64,000 nt of DNA from Parcubacteria group bacterium (GTDB lineage Bacteria; Patescibacteriota; Minisyncoccia; UBA6257; JACRHW01), in assembly GCA_016217555.1 (NCBI GenBank), contig JACRHW010000016.1:8845-72844 (forward strand), in the 5' to 3' direction. This document shows, one piece after another, positions 2,983-56,845 of this stretch; within the stretch, counting starts at the first letter, position 1; each line of letters starts with the position of its first letter. Under the pieces are notes generated by a model. The model saw only the letters and a list, made by a program, of their open reading frames with translations. It ran no database searches and was not told the origin of the DNA. A program made the translations under genes and the position numbers.

Positions 2983-3158
2983 AGGAGTTGGCTTCTGAAC
3001 GTAGTGAAGAACTGCCAAACCTTTACCCCGCCCTCTAAGCACATCGAGCCTCGTTTTAACCTTGTATCCACATGCATAGAGGGCGGGGTGCTCAATGTTG
3101 TAGATAAATTTATCTCGCTCAACATTGGGTCTCGCTCATAAATTTAAACAACATTGGC
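2983..3158 (+). repeat. structured junction element copy A (~176 bp; RNase P RNA-like)
   Basis: Starts at fusA stop and ends ...caacattggc directly before the next ATG; hairpin ccccgccctctaagcaca...atgcatagagggcgggg plus second inverted repeat caatgttg/caacattg; near-identical copies at 38716 and 40385. Confidence 0.8.
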
Positions 3159-3380
3159 ATGAATACTTTCGAAAAAATAAAAAAAATTCTTGAGTATGGA
3201 AGTGGAAAGGCGATTGTGCTTGACCACGAAGCAACCCCAGCATTTATCGTGATGAACTGGAAGGAGTATGAAAAAATACTCCACACCATCGATGTGCTAC
3301 GTGGATTACAAGAGCAACCAATACATCACGTTCCACGCCCATCACACGACCAACTTACTCTCAACGATCTACCTCTATAG
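3159..3380 (+). CDS. small hypothetical protein, weakly Phd/YefM-antitoxin-like
   Basis: 73 aa; ...KAIVLDHEATPAFIVMNWKEYEKIL... resembles the Phd/YefM fold motif; no toxin partner downstream. Confidence 0.4.
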   Translation: MNTFEKIKKILEYGSGKAIVLDHEATPAFIVMNWKEYEKILHTIDVLRGLQEQPIHHVPRPSHDQLTLNDLPL

Positions 3381-3383
3381 TCA

Positions 3384-3494
3384 CACCTACCCCTCTCCAA
3401 AACTCGCCTCCAAGAGGGAGACCGTTACAACCCCCCTATTATAGCGATACAACTTGACTCCCCCTTGAGGGCTCGCTTCGGAGAGGGGTAGGTT
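3384..3494 (+). repeat. palindromic intergenic element, copy 1 of 2 (second copy inverted at ~56757-56845)
   Basis: 15-bp arms cacctacccctctcc / ggagaggggtaggt flank a core ctccaagagggagaccgttacaacccccctattatagcgatacaacttgactcccccttgaggg that recurs in reverse complement near 56760-56830 at roughly 80 percent identity. Confidence 0.6.
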
Positions 3495-3543: not shown

Positions 3544-3882
3544 TTATAAATCTGGTTTTAAAATGCTTTCGAGGAGAAGCTGTTTTATCTCGTCGTACGG
3601 TGTGCGAGAGAAAAAGGGGATGCCGAGGTTGGGGACATCGCGAAGACACTCATTCCAAAAGACTTCAAAAATCGCCTTGGTCCACTCGTCGGGGCTTATT
3701 ACTTCGTTTTTCATACCACGCCACTGCTTTACGCGTCCGAGTCTCATTAGATATTGCTCCCACTCGTAGAAACGACGTTTAAGAATTGAGAGATACCAGC
3801 TCTTTTGTTCACTATCTTTTGGGGGAAAGGCGACAAGATTAAAGATGATGGTTTCCGCATCATAGTCGATGAAGCTACTCAT
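3544..3882 (-). CDS. hypothetical protein
   Basis: 112-aa ORF, no recognisable motifs; start lies 8 nt after the stop of the upstream minus-strand ORF in a different frame. Confidence 0.4.
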   Translation of the reverse strand: MSSFIDYDAETIIFNLVAFPPKDSEQKSWYLSILKRRFYEWEQYLMRLGRVKQWRGMKNEVISPDEWTKAIFEVFWNECLRDVPNLGIPFFSRTPYDEIKQLLLESILKPDL

Positions 3883-3890
3883 CGTTGCGC

Positions 3891-4310
3891 CTACTCAAAC
3901 GAACCATGCGAAAGATGTCTACATTCGCGATCATTTGGCTTTGAACTAAATACATGGCTTGCGCTTTCAACAAGAGTTTTGTCGTATGCTCCAACAAGAT
4001 CGTGTACAACAAGGTGTGCGCTTTCTTTAACCTCATCATCTATCTCTTGTTGTAACTCTTCTTTGTAGTGTTTGGGATGTGGATGTCTTTTCAGCCACGT
4101 TATCTTCCTATAAAGCTCGTGGTGCCAACACTCACTACTGTTGGGACATATGGTGGCGACACCATATCCAGGATAACCACCCATCGTTACTCGATTGGTT
4201 AACCCACCGCACACCCAGCACTTAAATACCTGAAGCGTTCGAAACGTATCATCGCGTTTATTCGGATAATCTTTTTTCCGCATATCATAGAGGACGATGT
4301 TTTCACCCAT
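3891..4310 (-). CDS. hypothetical Cys/His-rich protein (possible metal-binding or HD-like motif)
   Basis: 139 aa; CWVCGG...CPNSSECWHHE...HLVVHDLVGAYDKT; could be one disrupted gene together with 3544-3882. Confidence 0.4.
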   Translation of the reverse strand: MGENIVLYDMRKKDYPNKRDDTFRTLQVFKCWVCGGLTNRVTMGGYPGYGVATICPNSSECWHHELYRKITWLKRHPHPKHYKEELQQEIDDEVKESAHLVVHDLVGAYDKTLVESASHVFSSKPNDRECRHLSHGSFE

Positions 4311-4444: not shown

Positions 4445-4951
4445 ATGGGTACACCAAGTACGAACATTCTCACCATCGACCGTTCCCAACCCTTTAACTC
4501 CGAACCCTTTTTCGACAATTGGTGGAGCTTCTGGAAAGGTCCGATCGACGGCAATGGTCTCGAAGGTGACGAGGAGCAAGATCAACGTTCCCTCACCATC
4601 ACGGAGTTGGATCTGAACAAGATTCGTCTCGTGACTATGTTTAATGGTAAGACTAGAATGTCGGGCGAGGAGAGTCTGGTGCTTCTCAAGGCGAGTGGTG
4701 TCATTCGCCTCGACGCCAAGGTTTTCAAGACGCTCTTAGAGAACCAGTCTCATATCCCTAAAGAGTGGTGGAAGAAGACAAATGGTCTCACAACCAGCAT
4801 CTTCTTCGATGGCACGGTTTTCCGCGGTTCGCGTGGCACTTGTTGGACGCTCTGTCTCTGCCTCAGCGGTGGCGAGTGTGGCTGGGGCTACGGCGGGATC
4901 GGCTATAGTCGGAGCGTCGACGATCTGTCTGCGGTGTATGTAAATTCCTAA
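4445..4951 (+). CDS. hypothetical protein
   Basis: 168 aa; preceded by a strong SD aaaaaggag 9 nt before the ATG, which is rare in this window; no known motifs. Confidence 0.55.
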   Translation: MGTPSTNILTIDRSQPFNSEPFFDNWWSFWKGPIDGNGLEGDEEQDQRSLTITELDLNKIRLVTMFNGKTRMSGEESLVLLKASGVIRLDAKVFKTLLENQSHIPKEWWKKTNGLTTSIFFDGTVFRGSRGTCWTLCLCLSGGECGWGYGGIGYSRSVDDLSAVYVNS

Positions 4952-10280: not shown

Positions 10281-10358
10281 CACAAGCGAGCAAAAATGAG
10301 AATTTACTTTCATTTTCTGCGAGCGCAGTGATTATATATCCATCAGGATATATAATCT
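10281..10358 (+). repeat. ~75-bp structured element E1 (inverted partner at 12510-12580)
   Basis: cacaagcgagca aaaatgagaatttactttcatttt ctgcgagcgcagtg + 12-bp palindrome gattatatatcc atca ggatatataatc; E2 is its reverse complement with a diverged central hairpin. Confidence 0.65.
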
Positions 10359-12337: not shown

Positions 12338-12528
12338 AAATAAGCGAATTACGTGAACTAAATAAGGATGAGCTTGCAAAAGCACTTCATGAAAAACGCC
12401 AGACCTTAAAAGACCTGCGGTTTGAAATTGCTCAAGGCAAGGTTAAAAATGCTCATGTAATTCGATCGACAAAGAAAGACGTAGCGCAAATATTAACGGT
12501 TTTTAATAGTATACCTACGGGTATATAA
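12334..12528 (+). CDS. rpmC: 50S ribosomal protein L29
   Basis: 64 aa; MKISELRELNKDELAKALHEKRQTL...; ATGA overlap with rplP. Confidence 0.9.
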   Translation: MKISELRELNKDELAKALHEKRQTLKDLRFEIAQGKVKNAHVIRSTKKDVAQILTVFNSIPTGI

Positions 12529-12580
12529 CCACTGCGCTCGCATAATACGAAAATAAATTTTCGTTTACTGCTCGCTTGTG
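12510..12580 (-). repeat. ~70-bp structured element E2 (inverted copy of E1 at 10281-10358)
   Basis: tatacctacgggtata palindrome + cactgcgctcgca taatacgaaaataaattttcgtttac tgctcgcttgtg; arms are exact reverse complements of E1 arms. Confidence 0.65.
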
Positions 12581-18005: not shown

Positions 18006-18130
18006 CCCCGTTAGAAATTGCAACATTTACAAAATATATTCATTGCTATGTTTTATAAAAAGTCGTTTGTCATTAATACTACAGGAAACTCCAATTTCTA
18101 ACGGGGTTTACCTCTAACGGGATGAAATTT
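18006..18130 (+). repeat. ~100-bp element with 15-bp terminal inverted repeats, copy 1, running into the adk start codon
   Basis: ccccgttagaaattg ... caatttctaacgggg (perfect TIR) then tttacctctaacgggATGAAATT; near-identical copy at 20013-20139. Confidence 0.85.
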
Positions 18131-20012: not shown

Positions 20013-20139
20013 CCCCGTTAGAAATTGCAACATTTACAAAATATATTCATTGCTATGTTTTATAAAAAGTTGTTTGTCATTAATACTACAGGAAACTCCA
20101 ATTTCTAACGGGGTCTACTTCTAAACGGGATGAAATTCT
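20013..20139 (+). repeat. ~100-bp TIR element, copy 2, running into the pgk start codon
   Basis: ccccgttagaaattg...caatttctaacgggg then tctacttctaaacgggATGAAATT; ~97 percent identical to copy 1. Confidence 0.85.
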
Positions 20140-21287: not shown

Positions 21288-21325
21288 AAACAACTTTTAA
21301 ATTACAAAACATCTCTTCCTCACAC

Positions 21326-21351
21326 GTGAAAATACCCAGCGGTATTTTCAC
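21326..21351 (+). terminator. hairpin after pgk (no U-tract)
   Basis: gtgaaaatac ccagcg gtattttcac (10-bp stem). Confidence 0.3.
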
Positions 21352-21369
21352 TCTCTCCACAAGCGCTTC

Positions 21370-21407
21370 GTTGTCAATTCAATTCATTATCATTCAGAAT
21401 TGACAAC
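21370..21407. repeat. GTTGTCAA...TTGACAAC hairpin (second instance at 31483-31520)
   Basis: gttgtcaattc aattcattatcattca gaattgacaac. Confidence 0.5.
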
Positions 21408-21780
21408 ACCCTGCTTCGCGTCTGCGGAATGGTTCGGAAGGAATATTTTGTGATTTAAATTATATAAATAAAAAAGTCACACTTCGTGCGACCAATAAAA
21501 ATCATATATTATTCAATTGTCATTTTGGAACTTATTACTAAGAAGAAACCATGAAAGTAAGATTTGTATAAGCATACCACATACGAGAAACACATTAATT
21601 GTTTCCATTTGGTAGATACCAAATATTATAAGACAAGAACCCAAAAAATAGACTAACCACAAACGAATTATTGACACCATCACACACCTCCTTTCTCAAC
21701 CGAGATTTCAATTTAATAATAGCGTAAACAAAAATTTTAGTCAAGTATACGTTCAAAAAACATTATAATAAAATTTTTTT

Positions 21781-22323: not shown

Positions 22324-22404
22324 AACTAAATTTTTATCAAAAATCTGACGATCGTCAGGTGTTTGATAACTTGACAAACATTACAAAAAGAGTATAGTGC
22401 GGAT

Positions 22405-22832
22405 ATCTTTATGTGGGCAATTGCGATTCAATACAATGTTGAGTCGAGGAAAGTCCGGACTCTCATTTTCGATATTTTGTCGAAATAACAGTAGTGGGTA
22501 ATACCCACCAATCTAACATCACGTTGGATCAGAGGTGCGAACAGAGACGTCGCAATCGAAAGAAAGCGACATCCTTTAGTGGGATGAGCCTGTGTGGTAA
22601 CACATAGGGTGCAACGGCTAAATCCTTACTGAGTGCAAGGTCGTGCCCCGCCCCCTAAGCGCATTGTTATCTATGTAAATCATATTCCTATTTTAAAATA
22701 TTTTTTACGATATAATTAAAACAATATGCATAGGGGGCGGGGAGTGCCGCTTATGATCCTACGAGTAATCGTAGGGCTAGATAAATAATTGTCACCACAT
22801 TGGTACAAAATCCGGCTTATAGCATAAAGAAC
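22405..22832 (+). ncRNA. rnpB: RNase P RNA (bacterial type A-like), with a long P12-type hairpin
   Basis: Universal P4 motifs gaggaaagtccggactc (5' strand) and acaaaatccggcttat (3' strand); agggtgcaacggctaa P10/11-like; terminal helix tctttatg/cataaaga; extended hairpin ccccgccccctaagcgca...atgcatagggggcgggg at 22646-22742. Confidence 0.75.
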
Positions 22833-22866
22833 AAAAACACTGTCATCACTGACGGTGTTTTTGTTC
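22833..22866 (+). terminator. terminator after rnpB
   Basis: acaaaaacac tgtcatcactgacg gtgtttttgtt. Confidence 0.5.
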
Positions 22867-22910
22867 GTACGTCAATTGTTTTGTGGTGATAAACACACTA
22901 AAATGGAAGA

Positions 22911-23513
22911 ATGTATCCTCGACTTCTCAAACGTTCACTCGATATTATCGGAGCATGTATCGGCCTTACCTGTATTGCGCCTCTTTGGCCGTGTATTGCA
23001 GCCATTATTCAATTGGAAAGCAAGGGGCCTTCTCTTGTGAAAATAAAAAGAATAAGCGGAGGAAAACCATTTCTTATCTATAAGTTTAGGACAATGGTTC
23101 ACAATGCGCATGAAATGAGAAAGGATTTGCTTCATCTCAATGAACGAAGTGATGGACCCTTTTTTAAAATGGCAAACGATCCACGGCTTACGAAGACAGG
23201 AAAGATATTAAGAAAGTTTCGTATTGATGAATTTCCACAACTTATCAATGTGCTTCGTGGCGAACTTACCCTTGTTGGTCCAAGAGCCCATGAACCAGAG
23301 GAGATTGAACACTATCCAGAAGAATTTAAACATATTGTCCTCGCAAAAGCAGGGGTTACTGGCCTTTCTCAAGTTAATGGTGCCTCGGGGCTTCCTTTCC
23401 TCGAGGAACTAAAACTCGACAGCCAATATCTCACTCACCAATCATTTACTACTGATCTTAAAATTATAGGGAAGACCGTAAAAATAATATTTACAGATCC
23501 AAACGCCGTATAA
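22911..23513 (+). CDS. polyprenyl-phosphate sugar phosphotransferase (bacterial sugar transferase, PglC/WbaP C-terminal-like)
   Basis: 200 aa; one N-terminal TM; KFRTM...DEFPQLINVLRGELTLVGPR signature. Confidence 0.85.
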   Translation: MYPRLLKRSLDIIGACIGLTCIAPLWPCIAAIIQLESKGPSLVKIKRISGGKPFLIYKFRTMVHNAHEMRKDLLHLNERSDGPFFKMANDPRLTKTGKILRKFRIDEFPQLINVLRGELTLVGPRAHEPEEIEHYPEEFKHIVLAKAGVTGLSQVNGASGLPFLEELKLDSQYLTHQSFTTDLKIIGKTVKIIFTDPNAV

Positions 23514-31273: not shown

Positions 31274-31516
31274 ATGGAAAATTATCGTGATGAACGGGTT
31301 CTGTATCAGGCAATTCACGACGAAGGAAAAATAAATCCTAATCTGGTATGCGCTTCTTCGTTTTCACAAGCGATACAGATAAGTCCGGATAGGGTATTTT
31401 TCAAAATGCAGTTTTATGGACAAATGGGGATGGGTCTTTCAGAAAAAGAGCTCCTTACCATTCCGCAGGCGCGAAGCAGGGTGTTGTCAACCTCGAGTGC
31501 ATACGAGTTGGGTTGA
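31274..31516 (+). CDS. small hypothetical protein
   Basis: 81 aa from ATG preceded by strong SD ggaggagg; C-terminal codons overlap the GTTGTCAA hairpin. Confidence 0.4.
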   Translation: MENYRDERVLYQAIHDEGKINPNLVCASSFSQAIQISPDRVFFKMQFYGQMGMGLSEKELLTIPQARSRVLSTSSAYELG

Positions 31517-31520
31517 CAAC
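31483..31520. repeat. GTTGTCAA...TTGACAAC hairpin (second instance)
   Basis: gttgtcaacc tcgagtgcatacgagtt gggttgacaac. Confidence 0.5.
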
Positions 31521-31597
31521 GGAGTGCCTGCGGATGAGTTCGGATACCGCTGGGTATCCGAACGTGTGAGGAATATATGTGTTGTGATTCAAAACTA

Positions 31598-33355
31598 CTA
31601 CAAGCCCTCCAGTGTATAAACTTGTAGCGGCTCTTTGCGACCCTTTACGGATACCGCGCCCATTGGTTTGAAGGCGTATTTGCCTTTGATTTTATTTTTT
31701 GCGCTTTCTCCTATAAGAAGTGTGGTGTGAAGTTCCTTGTTTACCCCCTCGAGGCGAGAGGCGACGTTTACGGTATCCCCAATAACGGTATATTCCATTC
31801 TGATCTCCGATCCCACATTCCCAATAATGACAGGTCCCGTATAAATTCCAATACCAAACCTAATTTCTTTTATACCTTCGGCTCTGAGCTCTTCATTGAA
31901 TTTTTTTAATCGCTCGATCATGCCAAGTGCTGCCTCTATGGCGTGATCTGCATTATCAGGGTCATCCATAGGAGCACCCCAATACGCCATCACCGCATCT
32001 CCAATATATTTATCGAGAACACCCTTGTGTTTTAAAATTTCATCGGTCATTGCGGTGAGGTATCTATTTAACACACGAATAAGTTCTTTTGGTGTTACCG
32101 TCTCAGAAAATGTAGTGTAGCCTCTAATGTCGGAAAACAATATGGTAACCTCTTTCTCCTCGCCCCCCAAAGAAACCTTGTCAGGATTTTTGATAATATA
32201 TTCGAGTACGTCCGTGGCAACATATTTTGAAAACATTTTTCGCATTTCACGTCGTTCTCGTTCGGTCGTAAAATAGGTGTATCCAAAAAGCGAAAGTGTG
32301 GAAAAAATCCAGCCAAGATTGAGGTGAATAATATTTGCCACCAAGCCATTTTCAAAAAGAAGTATGGCAATAGTGGTATGTATTCCACCCAATACTACGT
32401 TCACAAGAAGAGGACGTGAGACGCCCTTAAAACGTCGGAACACCAAAACAGGGAGAAGGATGGTAATAATAATCCAGATTTGCATCGCTTTCGTAGCTAT
32501 GGGCACAAGGCTGTACCCACGAGAGAGCATATTAATAATATTTGCCTGTATCTCAACCCCTGGCATCTCGATACCTCGTGATAGGGGAGTAAGCTTTGTA
32601 TCGTGTAGATCGGGAGCGGTGGCACCGATAAGGATAATTTTATTTTGAAGTGCAGAAATAATAGTGCCATCCTCCAGCACATCAGAAATATGCCTTCTTA
32701 CAATCGTACCGGGTGCTCTTGAATAAACGATACGCGATGTTGCCCCAAACACTCTTTCGCTAGGAAGAGTCTTTTGAATTCTTGAAAGCACCTCATAACC
32801 AAAGGCACGTACTTTATCCCCCTCGTGCAAAAGAATGTTGATAGGGATCCTACGTACAATACCATCGGGATCTAAAATAAGATTAGTGTGTCCGATTGTT
32901 ACGTTTGGAGATGCAAGAAAAGAGGGAAGAGGGGGGCGTAATATCCCCGCACGAGGCAACATTCCACTATCTAACAAAAGCGGGTCCGCCTCCGCCGACA
33001 ATATAACTGGATATGATGTGGAAGCAAGTGCTGTCGCTAATACCGCATCATCAAATTCACCAAGACGAGACCTTTCCAAAAATGCGACATCTACTCCCAC
33101 CGCCTTCGGATGAGCACTCTCCAAAATTTTTAATATGTGCGCATAAATCTCTCTCGGCCATGGCCACTGGCCTATACGACCAATCGAATCGCTATCGATG
33201 GCAAGAATAACGATATCATTATTGAATGGTTTTGTTGTAACAAGAATGTCTTCGAGGGAGTTTTCGAATTTCGTAAATAAACCATAAGAAAAAGAACCCT
33301 CTACAATGAGAATAACGCATGCCACGATTCCAAACAAAAGAAGACTCTTCTTCAT
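31598..33355 (-). CDS. CHASE2 sensor domain-containing class III adenylate/guanylate cyclase
   Basis: 585 aa; signal/TM, periplasmic CHASE2-type region, 3 TM, then cyclase motifs FSDIRGYTTFSE, KYIGDAVMAYWGAP, GIGIYTGPVIIGNVGS. Confidence 0.85.
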   Translation of the reverse strand: MKKSLLLFGIVACVILIVEGSFSYGLFTKFENSLEDILVTTKPFNNDIVILAIDSDSIGRIGQWPWPREIYAHILKILESAHPKAVGVDVAFLERSRLGEFDDAVLATALASTSYPVILSAEADPLLLDSGMLPRAGILRPPLPSFLASPNVTIGHTNLILDPDGIVRRIPINILLHEGDKVRAFGYEVLSRIQKTLPSERVFGATSRIVYSRAPGTIVRRHISDVLEDGTIISALQNKIILIGATAPDLHDTKLTPLSRGIEMPGVEIQANIINMLSRGYSLVPIATKAMQIWIIITILLPVLVFRRFKGVSRPLLVNVVLGGIHTTIAILLFENGLVANIIHLNLGWIFSTLSLFGYTYFTTERERREMRKMFSKYVATDVLEYIIKNPDKVSLGGEEKEVTILFSDIRGYTTFSETVTPKELIRVLNRYLTAMTDEILKHKGVLDKYIGDAVMAYWGAPMDDPDNADHAIEAALGMIERLKKFNEELRAEGIKEIRFGIGIYTGPVIIGNVGSEIRMEYTVIGDTVNVASRLEGVNKELHTTLLIGESAKNKIKGKYAFKPMGAVSVKGRKEPLQVYTLEGL

Positions 33356-35846: not shown

Positions 35847-37226
35847 ATGCTAGACAACGATAAAGAACATCTCATCTTCGACATAAAACCAAAACATATG
35901 GGGGAAAGGGCAGAAACCCCCATTGAGGAGCTTTATAAAGAAGAGGAGCAGGAAGAGACACATAAAAAATTGGGTTTTTTAAGTCGGCTTCGTAAAAAAG
36001 AAAAACCAACAACAAAAGAAAAGAAATCGAAAACGAAACCTGAACCTGAACCAGAACTCGAGGAAGAAGAACAGGAAGAAACCATCCCAGAAAAAAAATC
36101 CTATAAAAAAATCCTTATCATCACTTCGATCTTCATCGTAGGTTTTGTCATCCTTTACATAGGAACGGCGGTACTTCCAAAGGCAATGCTCACCATTCAC
36201 GCAAAGCGAGTAGAAAAATCGATAAAAGCCGCAGCCACAGCTTCGACAGAAATAACTTCGGTAGATATTGAAAATCAAAAAATTCCGGCACGTGTCTTCG
36301 TCTTCAAACGCACTCTCACAAAGGAGTACCCAACAAGTAAACAAACGGTAACCCAAAAAGCAACAGGGGTTATTACCATCTATAATGCGTATTCGGGCGC
36401 CTCCCAAAGACTGGTTGCAACAACCCGTTTCCGTTCTCCTAATGGGAAAATTTTTAGAATAAATACAAGCGTGACAATACCGGGGGCAAAGATAGGTGGT
36501 GGAAGTATAACCCCCTCCTCAATTGACGTTCCCGTTACTGCCGACAAACCTGGTGCTGAATACAATATGGAACCCACGACGTTTACCATTCCTGGATTTG
36601 AAGGATCGCCAAAATATAAAGGATTTTATGGGAAATCCGCTAGGGCAATGGCGGGAGGATCGCAGGGTAATGCACAAGGAGTAAATGATTTGGATATCCA
36701 AAAAGGAAAGGCGGATCTTGTGCAAGGCGCAAAAGAACTTCTGATGACCGAACTTACAGAAAAATCAAAAGGATATATTTTTATGGATGGGGCCACCGTC
36801 TATAAAGTCGCGGGCGCATCTACAAATCATAAATTAGGAGAATTGGCGCCCACGTTTCAACTTACAGGAACCGTGGAATTACGTGCTATAGGTTTTAAAG
36901 AAGATGATGTAAAAATACTTGCAAAAAAATTACTCGAAGCACAACCGGACGCAAAAGAATTTATCGATCTGTCCATTACCTATGGCACCTTGCGCGTAAA
37001 TGACAATATTACCCTTGCAGCCTTTTCTTACGATGCAACATCCGCTATGCGAGAAAAGATAGATACCGAAGAATTAAAAACGCGTATTAGAGGAAAGGGA
37101 ATGAGTGAGATGAAAAGCATCCTGGCAAAATACGACTCCATAGCAAACGCAAAGGTGTCCCTCTGGCCCTTCTGGGTAACAAGCGTGCCCACTAATAAGG
37201 ACAAAATAGGAGTAACTATTGATTAG
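35847..37226 (+). CDS. hypothetical single-pass membrane protein with charged low-complexity N-terminus
   Basis: 459 aa; N-terminal E/K-rich region (KPEPEPELEEEEQEE), one TM (ILIITSIFIVGFVILYIGTAVL), ~340-aa extracytoplasmic domain without known motifs. Confidence 0.55.
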   Translation: MLDNDKEHLIFDIKPKHMGERAETPIEELYKEEEQEETHKKLGFLSRLRKKEKPTTKEKKSKTKPEPEPELEEEEQEETIPEKKSYKKILIITSIFIVGFVILYIGTAVLPKAMLTIHAKRVEKSIKAAATASTEITSVDIENQKIPARVFVFKRTLTKEYPTSKQTVTQKATGVITIYNAYSGASQRLVATTRFRSPNGKIFRINTSVTIPGAKIGGGSITPSSIDVPVTADKPGAEYNMEPTTFTIPGFEGSPKYKGFYGKSARAMAGGSQGNAQGVNDLDIQKGKADLVQGAKELLMTELTEKSKGYIFMDGATVYKVAGASTNHKLGELAPTFQLTGTVELRAIGFKEDDVKILAKKLLEAQPDAKEFIDLSITYGTLRVNDNITLAAFSYDATSAMREKIDTEELKTRIRGKGMSEMKSILAKYDSIANAKVSLWPFWVTSVPTNKDKIGVTID

Positions 37227-37347
37227 GACCCACGCATTCGGCGCATTACTTCGTCAAACGCTGTGGTACTCAACGCAGTACTTCTTATGTACAGCTTATT
37301 CCGTTTCTCGCGTTTTCCTCATACTGCATCCGAATGCGTGGGTCCTA
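37224..37347 (+). other. large perfect hairpin (18-bp stem, ~88-nt loop) starting at the stop codon of gene 35847-37226
   Basis: taggacccacgcattcgg ... ccgaatgcgtgggtccta; loop contains inner hairpin gtactcaacgcagtac. Confidence 0.7.
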
Positions 37348-37453
37348 TTGACTAATTACCGGTATTTGATTACCATATCTAAGTGGTATTGAGAAGCTTG
37401 GCTAAGGCTTTTTCTTTTTACAAAGCCAGTGCCTCGTTTTTTCCTCCATTTCT

Positions 37454-37660: not shown

Positions 37661-37721
37661 GAGATAACTTACAGATTTTAGCTACTAGCTTCTAGGAAAC
37701 ATAATCTAGCTAATCCCTAAT

Positions 37722-37749
37722 TTCCTAAAAGCTAACAGCTAAAAGCTAA
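37722..37749 (+). repeat. CCTAAAAGCTAA-type AGCT-core array immediately upstream of rpmJ
   Basis: ttcctaaaagctaacagctaaaagctaac then ttt ATG. Confidence 0.6.
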
Positions 37750-38715: not shown

Positions 38716-38898
38716 AGGATTTGGCTTCCGAACACAGTGAGGAATTGCCAAACCTTTACCCCGCCTTCTAGGCACAATAACATAAGGTAAATTAAAGAAA
38801 TATGATACTACAAGAATATATGTTACAACAGTATGCAATGTGCTTAGAAGGCGGGGTGCTCAGTTTTATTAACTCACTTCGTTTCGTATAAAATTGGC
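38716..38898 (+). repeat. structured junction element copy B (RNase P RNA-like)
   Basis: aggatttggcttccgaacacagtgaggaattgccaaacctttaccccgccttctaggcac...gcttagaaggcggggtgctcag...aaattggc then rpsD ATG. Confidence 0.8.
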
Positions 38899-39522: not shown

Positions 39523-39572
39523 ATAAGATTAGCTCATAGCTGTTGGCTTACAGGGAGATGCAAACCATTGAT

Positions 39573-39616
39573 TCCTAAAAGCTAAAAGCTAAAAGCTAAA
39601 AGCTAAAAGCTAAACT
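39573..39616 (+). repeat. (AAAGCT)n tandem hexamer array immediately upstream of rpoA
   Basis: attcctaaaagctaaaagctaaaagctaaaagctaaact then ATG. Confidence 0.7.
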
Positions 39617-40384: not shown

Positions 40385-40560
40385 AGGATTTGGCTTCCGA
40401 ACACAGTGAGGAATTGCCAAACCTTTACCCCGCCCTCTAGGCATATGGATACAAGATTAAAACAAGGCTCGATGTGCGTAGAGGGCGGGGTGCTCAATGT
40501 TGTAGATACATTTATCTCACTCAACATTGGGTTTCGTTCATAAATGTAAACAACATTGGC
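40385..40560 (+). repeat. structured junction element copy C (RNase P RNA-like)
   Basis: ~95 percent identical to copy B over the first 60 nt; hairpin ccccgccctctaggcata...gcgtagagggcgggg; ends caacattggc then rplQ ATG. Confidence 0.8.
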
Positions 40561-41272: not shown

Positions 41273-41327
41273 GCTTATAGCTGTTAGCTACTAGCTTATA
41301 GGAGACAAGGGGTACTAATCCCGAATA

Positions 41328-41366
41328 TCCTAAAAGCTAAAAGCTAAAAGCTAAAAGCTAACGTAT
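41328..41366 (+). repeat. CCTAAAAGCTAA tandem array immediately upstream of rpsI
   Basis: tatcctaaaagctaaaagctaaaagctaacgtat then ATG; the track start 41367 implies one more heptamer unit than I could read, so unit count is approximate. Confidence 0.65.
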
Positions 41367-41825
41367 ATGCCTACCACTGCTACTAAAATCAAAAAAACGG
41401 TGACCAAAAAAGTATCATCAACAAAAACAGAGGATACTGAAAAATACTTCTACGGTCTTGGACGAAGAAAGACAGCTATTGCTCAAGTACGCCTTTATCC
41501 CAAAAGAAAGGACATCATTATCAATGGCAAAGAATTTCATGCTTATTTCCCAACAAAGCGTACCCAGCTTACTGTTGAAGCTCCTTTCAAAAAAATGAAA
41601 ATTGCCGAATATTTCGGAGGCGATGTAAGGGTACTTGGCGGAGGAGTAAGTGCACAAGCAGAAGCCATACGCCTTGGTATTAGCAAAGCACTTCTCGCCT
41701 TCAATGGGGAGTTCAAGCGAAGACTTAAGCGTGCAGGGTATCTTACACGAGATCCTCGCATGGTAGAACGCAAAAAATACGGCCTCAAAAAAGCACGTCG
41801 TGCACCCCAGTGGGGAAAGCGTTAA
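41367..41825 (+). CDS. rpsI: 30S ribosomal protein S9
   Basis: 152 aa; ends ...KKARRAPQWGKR (S9 C-terminal signature). Confidence 0.93.
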   Translation: MPTTATKIKKTVTKKVSSTKTEDTEKYFYGLGRRKTAIAQVRLYPKRKDIIINGKEFHAYFPTKRTQLTVEAPFKKMKIAEYFGGDVRVLGGGVSAQAEAIRLGISKALLAFNGEFKRRLKRAGYLTRDPRMVERKKYGLKKARRAPQWGKR

Positions 41826-41852
41826 ACTAGCTTTTAGCTGTTAGGTTTTAGG

Positions 41853-41884
41853 AAAAAGACGCCTTTGATGGGCGTCTTTTTGTG
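41853..41884. terminator. bidirectional rho-independent terminator after rpsI
   Basis: aaaaagacgcc tttgat ggcgtctttttgtg. Confidence 0.75.
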
Positions 41885-56725: not shown

Positions 56726-56756
56726 GAAGAATGGACACCATCCAAATCAAAAACGA

Positions 56757-56845
56757 ATCCTCAAGGGGGAGTCAGGTGTTATCGCTACGATAGGGGGAAT
56801 ATAACGGTCACCCCCTTGGAGATGAGTGTTTGGTTTGGGTGGGGG
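56757..56845 (-). repeat. palindromic intergenic element, copy 2 (inverted copy of 3384-3494)
   Basis: reverse complement ...ctccaagggggtgaccgttatattccccctatcgtagcgataacacctgactcccccttgagg... is ~80 percent identical to the core at 3408-3471. Confidence 0.6.

Follow-up and report, generated by a model that had tools for sequence, protein, structure and literature searches.

A palindromic, probably intervening-sequence-like cassette in the RNase P RNA gene of a Parcubacteria bacterium belongs to a dispersed family of CPR repeats

The 23S and 16S rRNA genes of Salmonella, Campylobacter, Coxiella and Leptospira carry intervening sequences (IVSs) that are excised by RNase III without ligation of the resulting pieces. 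Additions to RNase P RNA are represented by the STRR repeats of cyanobacterial rnpB, whose location is reportedly helix P12, and we know of no report of STRR repeats shared with rRNA genes. The rRNA IVSs are sporadic among close relatives and are seen as selfish elements or as spreading horizontally (PMC4990558, PMC2801512). The cyanobacteria whose rnpB has STRR insertions are heterocyst-forming ones (Vioque 1997, Nucleic Acids Res 25:3471; cited in PMC2858038). Two further groups of short repeats are relevant here: the REP/REPIN sequences, which evolve intragenomically as miniature mobile DNA (PMC3116915), and the Rickettsia palindromic elements (RPEs), of which Rickettsia bellii has 526, with 53 of them interrupting protein genes and a single one the gene for tmRNA (PMC1458961).

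The structural RNAs of CPR bacteria have peculiarities of their own. Lui et al. (2021; PMC8172020) found that CPR RNase P RNAs have sub-threshold Rfam scores, that helices are often missing, with P16/P17 being dispensable in many of them, and that the UGG/GGU motif is frequently absent (the GGU motif is missing in 23 of 35 RNAs); the same paper describes type A RNAs with "large extensions of helices," such as an extended P15. Tsurumaki et al. (PMC11270868) reported short ORF-less insertions at the IVS sites of CPR 23S rRNA and left them uncharacterised. Here, we analyze a hairpin in the rnpB gene of a Parcubacteria bacterium that belongs to one cassette family found in RNase P RNA genes, rRNA genes and operon spacers alike.

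The window, by which we mean the whole 64,000-nucleotide stretch of DNA analyzed here, contains an rnpB gene as the original prediction had it, and this gene call is ordinary and correct (Table 1). The bacterial RNase P class A model RF00010 covers positions 22405-22835 of the forward strand over its full length (model positions 1-367) with 98.6 bits and an E value of 7.3e-31, and it outscored the rest of the RNase P clan, from which a weaker overlapping match was dropped. The score falls 1.4 bits short of the curated gathering cut-off of 100 bits, which is why an Rfam scan of the whole window at gathering thresholds returned zero matches and the gene surfaced under E-value thresholds. The rnpB genes of relatives score 99.6-105.8 bits against the same model, and since orthologues free of the hairpin cassette (99.6, 99.9 and 105.8 bits) are also close to the cut-off, the shortfall reflects the divergence of the lineage and not the insert alone. 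With scores of 98.6-105.8 bits against a cut-off of 100, the window gene and its relatives resemble the sub-threshold CPR RNAs of Lui et al.

Table 1. Coordinates of the rnpB gene, its helices and signals, and the junction elements (positions in the window)
Feature	Coordinates	Strand	Description	Basis
rnpB, bacterial type A	22405..22835	+	431 nt	RF00010 match; fold z = -6.7
Promoter-like site	22371..22398	+	TTGACA, 16-nt spacer, TATAGT	11/12 consensus positions
P1, 5' strand	22406..22413	+	UCUUUAUG; pairs with CAUAAAGA at 22823-22830	8/8 pairs
P4, 5' strand	22451..22458	+	AAGUCCGG (AAG-U-CCGG), inside universal GAGGAAAGUCCGG	pairs with 22812-22818
P4, 3' strand	22812..22818	+	CCGGCUU, inside ACAAAAUCCGGCUUAU	
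P12	22549..22570	+	5 bp, GUCGC/GCGAC, 12-nt loop, between the P10/11 strands	CM alignment, pairing check, relatives
P15, 5' strand	22639..22641	+	GGU; partner GCC at 22746-22748	CM alignment, relatives
Hairpin cassette in the place of P16-P17	22646..22742	+	97 nt	CM alignment, arm counts, relatives, folding
Terminator-like hairpin	22838..22865	+	CACUGUCA-UCAC-UGACGGUG followed by a U run, directly 3' of P1	read directly
J1	2983..3158	+	between fusA (stop codon) and a 73-aa ORF (start)	
J2, S11/S4 spacer	38716..38898	+	183 nt; 98-nt cassette at 38759-38856 (CCCCGCCUUCUA...)	
J3, rpoA/L17 spacer	40385..40560	+	176 nt; 63-nt cassette at 40428-40490	

The strands of P1 and P4 that had been proposed from the letters alone pair in full. 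In P4, where the pairing was read directly from the strands, all seven pairs are Watson-Crick and U22454 forms the universal bulge, so that this long-range helix has both its bulged U and its conserved strands (GAGGAAAGUCCGG / ACANAAnnCGGCUUA). Besides P1-P3 and P5-P12, with P8 and P9 among them, the RNA has the P13, P14 and P18 helices of type A with GNRA-type loops (P14 at 22589-22608 and P18 at 22757-22776, each with a GUAA loop), and an additional hairpin is present between P5 and P7 (22467-22485). Where the GGU motif of the P15/16 internal loop would be expected, which pairs with the 3' CCA of tRNA, only GGAGU (22741-22745) follows the cassette, and the CC at 22646-22647 is a possible pairing partner for the GG in it. 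The promoter-like site stops 7 nt upstream of the RNA start and its -10 element lines up with TATAAT/TATAGT 5' of rnpB in relatives. Similarly, the terminator-like hairpin, which a simple terminator scan did not list, aligns with the terminator hairpins that follow rnpB in relatives. No credible ORF exists in the interval 22380-22870, as predicted, and the expected neighbors are in place: adenylate kinase, methionine aminopeptidase, RuvX, phosphoglycerate kinase (PGK) and RNase H upstream, and a sugar transferase, two GT4 glycosyltransferases and a DUF4012 protein downstream. Judged from its sequence, the interval is a single-copy-type, type A rnpB in which the catalytic core is intact, and it belongs to a Parcubacteria/CPR bacterium. 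Since this core is intact and P16/P17 is dispensable in many CPR RNAs, RNase P function would be expected to be retained despite the cassette.

The hairpin of about 100 nt that had been noticed inside the gene is also real, with a fold energy of -37.9 kcal/mol (z = -6.6), running from CCCCGCCCCCTA to TAGGGGGCGGGG. A 12-bp clamp (CCCCGCCCCCUA/UAGGGGGCGGGG) closes it, position 13 is mismatched (A.A) and the interior is rich in A and U. Its assignment to P12 did not survive the covariance-model alignment, which places it between the two strands of P15, in the P16/P17 columns and 3' of P13 and P14 as well as of the second strands of P10/11, P7 and P5. The P15 flanks GCAAGGUCGUGCC and GGAGUGCCGC show no variation across all relatives, and the outermost CC/GG of the hairpin is native to rnpB in all of them. 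A role of the cassette as an intrinsic terminator was rejected because no U run follows it on the 3' side.

Comparison with relatives indicates what the cassette has replaced. Exact-protein look-ups of the window RNase H and PGK returned no record. A contig scan with the window PGK yielded a single true relative, L001, a metagenome-assembled Parcubacteria genome from groundwater with 81% identity in this protein (the other ten loci were from SAR86, with 34-37% identity, and were unusable). Homologues of the window RNase H were found at 91-93%, 81% and 75% identity, the last of these on a Patescibacteria contig of 260 kb whose gene order matches that of the window, and rnpB adjoins the RNase H gene in four relatives (L012, L001, L015 and, in part, L016). 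When the five rnpB sequences are aligned, the flanks GCAAGGTCGTGCC and GGAGTGCCGC are invariant, and between them the relatives have hairpins of 22, 29 and 44 nt versus 93 nt in the window, with sequences unrelated to one another. No clamp motif was found in these relatives and no arms of the family occur within 63 kb of their DNA. The differing, unrelated hairpins and the clamp-free relatives therefore lead us to regard the arm beyond P15 as hypervariable in this lineage and the window version as a lineage-specific replacement: the hairpin is a substitute for the P16-P17 arm distal to P15 and not an ancestral helix.

The same comparison changes the view of the surrounding DNA. The rnpB gene had been thought to lie inside an insertion in the ribosomal operon. 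Instead, the order SecY-Adk-Map-RuvX...PGK-RNaseH-rnpB-glycan...infA-S13 is common to the window and a relative with a 71% identical S4, so that the block of about 20 kb from map to infA represents conserved synteny and is not bounded by the junction elements, whose places are downstream of fusA, in the S11/S4 spacer and in the rpoA/L17 spacer.

The proposed link between the rnpB hairpin and a dispersed repeat was right, and it extends much further than a single window could reveal. Within the window, the clamp 12-mer (with at most 1 mismatch) occurs 6 times versus 0.10 expected, and a 15-mer (with at most 3 mismatches) gives 8 arms versus 0.65 expected. These 8 arms form exactly four hairpins, namely the one in rnpB and one in each of J1 (3026-3088), J2 and J3, and the likeness reaches about 20 nt into each arm. 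Three clamp variants are present (C8C9, C8T9 and T8T9: CCCCGCCCCCTA, CCCCGCCCTCTA and CCCCGCCTTCTA), each with a complementary 3' arm. J1 is composed of a hairpin A, the 63-nt cassette and a hairpin C that ends at GGC-ATG. Its flanks are 80% identical to those of J3 in direct orientation and the hairpin interiors are 92% identical in inverted orientation; J1 and J3 are thus duplicates with opposite interiors, which means that the interior can flip. In four relatives, whose S4 proteins are 90%, 80%, 76% and 71% identical to that of the window, the S11/S4 spacer is 10-40 nt versus 183 nt in the window, and the rpoA/L17 spacer is 11-26 nt in three of them versus 176 nt (the contig of the 80% relative ends before this spacer). 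The extra DNA of J2 and J3 extends from just past the stop codon up to just before the (C)ATG. J2 and J3 are recent insertions of about 175-185 nt, absent in the relatives compared directly, and J1, too, is missing from the relatives covered. The idea that they could be conserved regulatory leaders of S4 or L17 was discarded because the four relatives carry spacers of only 10-40 nt.

Beyond the window, one exact two-armed pattern scan of JGI/ENA metagenome contigs found the cassette in at least 120 further contigs, several of them from Hainich groundwater (0.1-um fractions). Together with the window, the sample contains at least 128 copies, 124 of them distinct among the matches listed, with the loci being fragments. 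The family ends read CCCCGCCCUCUA-A-GC ... GC-A-UAGAGGGCGGGG with a stem of about 25 bp, where the invariance of the terminal bases is partly a matter of ascertainment because the scan pattern fixed those 24 bases. The following properties all refer to the matches listed. The modal length is 99 nt and 94 of the 128 copies are 96-100 nt long, with minor classes at 63-69 nt and 83-84 nt; this tight mode, with an interior free of constraint, is accounted for neither by drift nor by RNase III, and the trimming model discussed below would explain neither the mode nor how the cassette spreads. Position 13 is A.A in 53 copies and T.T in 48, which is the same mismatch seen on the other strand, and it forms a Watson-Crick pair in 6% of copies, where composition would predict 43%. 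Covariation links positions 8 and 9 to their partners, a GC step occupies positions 14-15, position 16 is mostly unpaired and positions 17-25 are variable in sequence while pairing far more than a shuffled control. The interior is not conserved, with a mean identity of 55% that equals background, and in many copies it has little structure. Between the rnpB copy and J2, interior identity is 68%; this lies within the background (99th percentile, 69%), so that no donor copy can be named, and none of the sampled cassettes has a close interior match to the rnpB copy.

Where proteins adjoining the cassettes had labels, which was the case for a few contigs, they were from the Patescibacteria group, the Parcubacteria group and Ca. 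Nealsonbacteria. A search of 2.9 million viral contigs found zero copies. In Rfam, the only matches to the cassette were chance ones to plant and animal microRNA precursors, by which a known RNA family was ruled out, and we found no paper on the cassette sequence in a relevant context and none on miniature inverted-repeat elements in CPR. With neither a paper nor an Rfam family found, the cassette family is apparently undescribed.

The range of places in which copies sit is broad. In other RNase P RNAs, the cassette is found at P16/17 (L020), at P12 (L045), between P5 and P8 (L035) and at P3 in three loci (L095, L117 and L031), one of which (L117) also has a degenerate second copy. Among the matches listed, it lies within 23S rRNA genes in seven loci (L088, L106, L085, L021, L072, L069 and L099, the last of these twice) and in or beside 16S rRNA genes in two (L128 and L030). 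Based on the flanks and the E. coli sequence, we take the 23S insertion sites to be approximately helix 25, a nearby loop of domain II, helix 63 and the region of helix 78/79, all of which are known IVS or expansion-segment sites. In the RNA genes, the cassette swaps a whole helix exactly at its base, an arrangement that differs from what simple transposition predicts. About a third of the listed copies (46 of 128) occupy a conserved composite element, "...(CC)TTTA / cassette / TGCTCA(A/C)T...", between co-directional housekeeping genes, typically with 10-60 nt from the end of the upstream gene to the cassette and 16-70 nt from the cassette to the start of the next gene; no convincing cassette-free ("empty") composite was found in 1 Mb. 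Neighbors at these junctions, again among the matches listed, include S19 (downstream, 3 loci), L2 (upstream, 2), L11 (downstream, 3) and NusG (upstream, 2), further S11, S13, S4, S3, L22, S8, L6, L17, S18 and SSB, and outside the ribosomal genes recA, mreB, secDF, nusA, serS and mraW. The pairing of upstream and downstream gene per locus was established for the window (S11/S4 and rpoA/L17).

The rRNA IVSs are among the described systems closest to the cassette. Like them, the cassette is a long stem-loop (about 100 nt or more) where a structural RNA would have the tip of a peripheral helix, it is found in 23S and 16S genes, with one copy presumably at the classical helix-25 IVS site according to its flanking sequence, and it is sporadic among kin, being absent from the rnpB genes of four relatives and from 63 kb of their DNA. 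It differs in that members of one cassette family are also located in four RNase P RNA helices and in many mRNA spacers, for which we found no IVS report, and in that its terminal clamp and mismatch are conserved across many genomes; RNase III cleavage is only putative here. The proteobacterial REP/REPIN/BIME sequences are likewise GC-rich imperfect palindromes, with hairpins of about 100 nt in REP doublets, a conserved imperfection in the stem and many copies per genome, located after stop codons between genes of one operon. However, REPINs are strictly extragenic and tied to the RAYT transposase, whereas copies of the cassette lie inside essential rRNA and RNase P RNA genes, and there is no sequence similarity between the two. 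RPEs share with the cassette a palindromic structure of about 100-150 nt, a reduced host genome and the ability to insert into genes without destroying them, but they are known mostly as in-frame insertions in protein genes, have an unrelated sequence and reside in another phylum, while the cassette has stop codons at its ends and was sampled in RNA genes and spacers. STRR insertions are short tandem heptamer repeats at one helix only, as opposed to a single long GC-clamped hairpin. The helix extensions described by Lui et al. are not linked in that paper to one cassette family in rRNA genes or intergenic elements (PMC8172020), and we found no report that ties the CPR rRNA insertions and the RNase P extensions to one family.

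We also considered the cassette as a mobile DNA element of a known kind. Its terminal inverted repeats of 12-15 bp, perfect save for position 13, are those of the miniature inverted-repeat type of transposable element (MITE). No target-site duplication was found, however, at rnpB, in rRNA or, against the unfilled sites of relatives, at J2 and J3. The loci searched for arms amount to 1.01 Mb, a small and biased sample, in which 138 + 138 arms were counted and all but 11 were paired within 125 nt. Nor did a parent transposon emerge from this 1.01 Mb, where arm pairs more than 125 nt apart occurred only in L103 (266 and 514 nt), too short for a transposase. The lack of target duplications and of transposon-sized arm pairs argues that the cassette is not a conventional MITE, and together with the lack of a parent transposon and of viral copies it leaves any particular mechanism of mobility unsupported. 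The orientation of the cassette relative to conserved flanks is random (T.T in 20 and A.A in 14 of the matches listed), by which a fixed RNA-sense orientation, with A.A about as frequent as T.T (U.U in the RNA), was ruled out. In one pair of loci (L050 and L113), the interior orientation is shared and the mismatch at position 13 is different. On the transcribed strand of the stem, G.U pairs outnumber A.C pairs by 84 to 58 among the matches listed (p = 0.036), and by 24 to 12 in RNA genes, which suggests modest selection on folding of the transcript. Sense and antisense strands did not differ significantly in fold energy (p = 0.11).

Taken together, it is probable that the cassette is a selfish, IVS-like mobile palindrome of CPR bacteria that survives where an RNA helix can lengthen. 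The cassette comes and goes between close relatives and multiplies inside a genome, either alone or within a composite intergenic unit of about 175 nt, with its interior flipping; compensatory changes keep it a hairpin, and in essential RNAs its sites are precisely those at which a helix has room to lengthen. It would persist only at places where a long helix is harmless, such as the peripheral tips of 23S and 16S rRNA and P3, P5/P7, P12 and P16/17 of RNase P RNA, with spacers inside operons as a further harmless location. RNA folding would act as a filter on the copies, and selection after insertion could yield the exact placement at helix bases. The RNA could bear the cassette as an inert extension of a helix, or RNase III may trim it as it does the rRNA IVSs, the stem of about 25 bp being a plausible substrate for this enzyme. 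A cut near the mismatch would leave the 12-bp clamp, in which 10 pairs are G-C although the genome has a G+C content of about 41%, and the clamp could join the RNA pieces and also stand in for P3, P12 or P16. If true, this trimming model would account for a clamp rich in G-C pairs, for the mismatch and for an interior that is free to vary.

A bolder reading, which we consider doubtful, is that the cassette is an RNA-level device of CPR bacteria. The clamp and mismatch would be read by a dedicated nuclease or protein, RNase P RNA and 16S and 23S rRNA would be split and yet held together by the clamp, mRNAs would be cut at the junctions, and the cassette would spread through swaps of whole helices in a manner unlike known transposition. 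To our knowledge, a naturally two-piece RNase P RNA is undescribed in bacteria.

It is unlikely that the cassette has been selected as a functional RNA module, in which a shared site of binding or processing for one protein would coordinate the processing, stability or assembly of rRNA, RNase P RNA and highly expressed operon mRNAs. A precedent by analogy is provided by archaea, where L7Ae binds K-turns in rRNA, in RNase P RNA and in the leaders of mRNAs. A module of this kind would be in line with the strong conservation of the clamp and of the mismatch next to a free interior, with the surplus of G.U over A.C on the transcribed strand and with the enrichment of copies at the junctions of ribosomal-protein and other housekeeping operons; moreover, the clamp is identical in either orientation of the interior, so that an RNA-binding protein would be unaffected by flips. 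However, the closest relatives lack the cassette at orthologous sites with nothing in exchange, four different RNase P RNA helices are occupied across lineages and the mismatch in the transcript is A.A or U.U about equally often. In addition, the conservation of the ends is partly an effect of the search pattern, and the analysis produced no candidate for the partner protein.

Quite improbable, in our view, is an element acting at the DNA level only, that is, a cruciform or hairpin that serves recombination, inversion or nucleoid-protein binding in the manner of REP/BIME sequences and whose effects on RNA are incidental. The perfect inverted repeats, the J1/J3 duplicates with their inverted interiors, the random orientation, the tight length without constraint on sequence and the crowding of the same genomes with other palindromic repeat families would all suit such an element. 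The mild but significant asymmetry between G.U and A.C on the transcribed strand would not, and the exact placement at helix bases in structural RNA genes shows that RNA folding filters the survivors; REP/BIME-type elements are also strictly extragenic, which the cassette is not. Finally, an expanded P12 or other helix native to the RNA with only a chance likeness to the junction hairpins, as could be imagined since P12 often varies in length among RNase P RNAs and one metagenome contig does have the cassette there, is refuted by the covariance-model position between the P15 strands, the separate P12, the cassette-free relatives, and arm counts and further contigs that exclude chance, and we give it next to no credence.

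In conclusion, we find that the rnpB gene of this Parcubacteria bacterium carries, in place of the P16-P17 arm, one copy of a cassette family that is probably best seen as an IVS-like mobile palindrome. For one sequence family to occur in several helices of both RNase P RNA and rRNA, the most conserved RNAs of the cell, is unusual, and it raises the questions of whether the host RNAs are fragmented in vivo, how the clamp may be recognized and how whole helices come to be replaced exactly at their base. The cassette offers one explanation both for the ORF-less insertions in CPR rRNA (PMC11270868) and for the extended RNase P RNAs that score below threshold (PMC8172020), and masking it should improve the annotation of rnpB and rRNA genes in CPR genomes. 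Its insertion sites chart where RNase P RNA and rRNA tolerate large additions.

At window positions 22324-22912, the entire rnpB unit (promoter, gene for the type A RNase P RNA and terminator) shares its strand with the RNase H gene, while in four of four relatives, including L001, L012 and L015, the unit and RNase H are on opposite strands. This difference in orientation points to a local inversion. The gene content between RNase H and rnpB also varies among the relatives.

The cassette, a GC-clamped palindromic hairpin that is usually about 99 nt long and is present in the window's rnpB as a 97-nt copy, was found in several forms at metagenome loci (see the table), and in the interrupted 16S rRNA gene it is located at the 3' end of the insertion. 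In the window, fusA and tuf are separated by four open reading frames, and Pfam gave no match either for the first of these, directly after the cassette-containing junction element J1, or for its neighbors at 3544-3882, 3891-4310 and 4445-4951. No Rfam family reached its gathering score anywhere in window positions 1-64000, tRNA genes and ribosomal-protein leaders included, although genes of the str, S10, spc and alpha operons are present there.

Coordinates of repeats, cassette variants and the reading frame after J1
Feature	Coordinates	Location
16S rRNA gene with ~900-nt insertion at model position 873/874	L128 5895-8405	
rnpB with cassette at P3 and degenerate second copy after P5	L117 1359-1827	
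Tandem pair of cassettes, 24 nt between	L055 13163-13389	
Minimal cassettes, clamp alone, 25-35 nt	L099 8460-8494; L124 6383-6407	
Second hairpin family, window copies	18006-18107; 20014-20115	SecY-Adk and RuvX-PGK spacers
Second hairpin family, L001 copy	L001 3024-3125	
Structured repeat (~160 nt), copy 1	21288-21445	after PGK
Structured repeat (~160 nt), copy 2	31445-31600, reverse complement	after alaS, inverted orientation
Further long palindromes and inverted repeats	3385-3493; 56732-56843; 37204-37367; 10294-10350 / 12510-12566	intergenic spacers
Tandem CTAAAAG heptamer runs (CTAAAAGCTAAAAGCTAAAAG...)	37710-37749; 39560-39613; 41315-41354	spacers, S13-L17 operon region
Inverted partners of heptamer runs	41819-41855	
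73-aa open reading frame	3159-3380	directly after J1

Hairpins of a second family, about 101 nt in size, are bounded by a terminal inverted repeat of 15 bp (CCCCGTTAGAAATTG...CAATTTCTAACGGGG). Similarity between the pair of copies in the window is 97%, and the copy at the relative's locus L001 is, as judged by eye, the same or nearly the same as those in the window, although PGK is only 81% identical. In total, 17 copies of 59 to 132 nt were found; besides the window pair and the L001 copy, these comprise 14 at other loci examined. The copies are often bordered by a direct repeat similar to a -35 box (TTGAC...GTTGAC).

The two copies of the ~160-nt structured repeat share 85% identity, and the stem shows compensatory changes (GTGAAAATACC/GGTATTTTCAC versus GTTCGGATACC/GGTATCCGAAC). 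This suggests that a third family exists among the structured intergenic elements. The further palindromes and inverted repeats in the window are hairpins of 109 to 124 nt with perfect ends of at least 12 bp; hairpin-type repeats crowd this genome.
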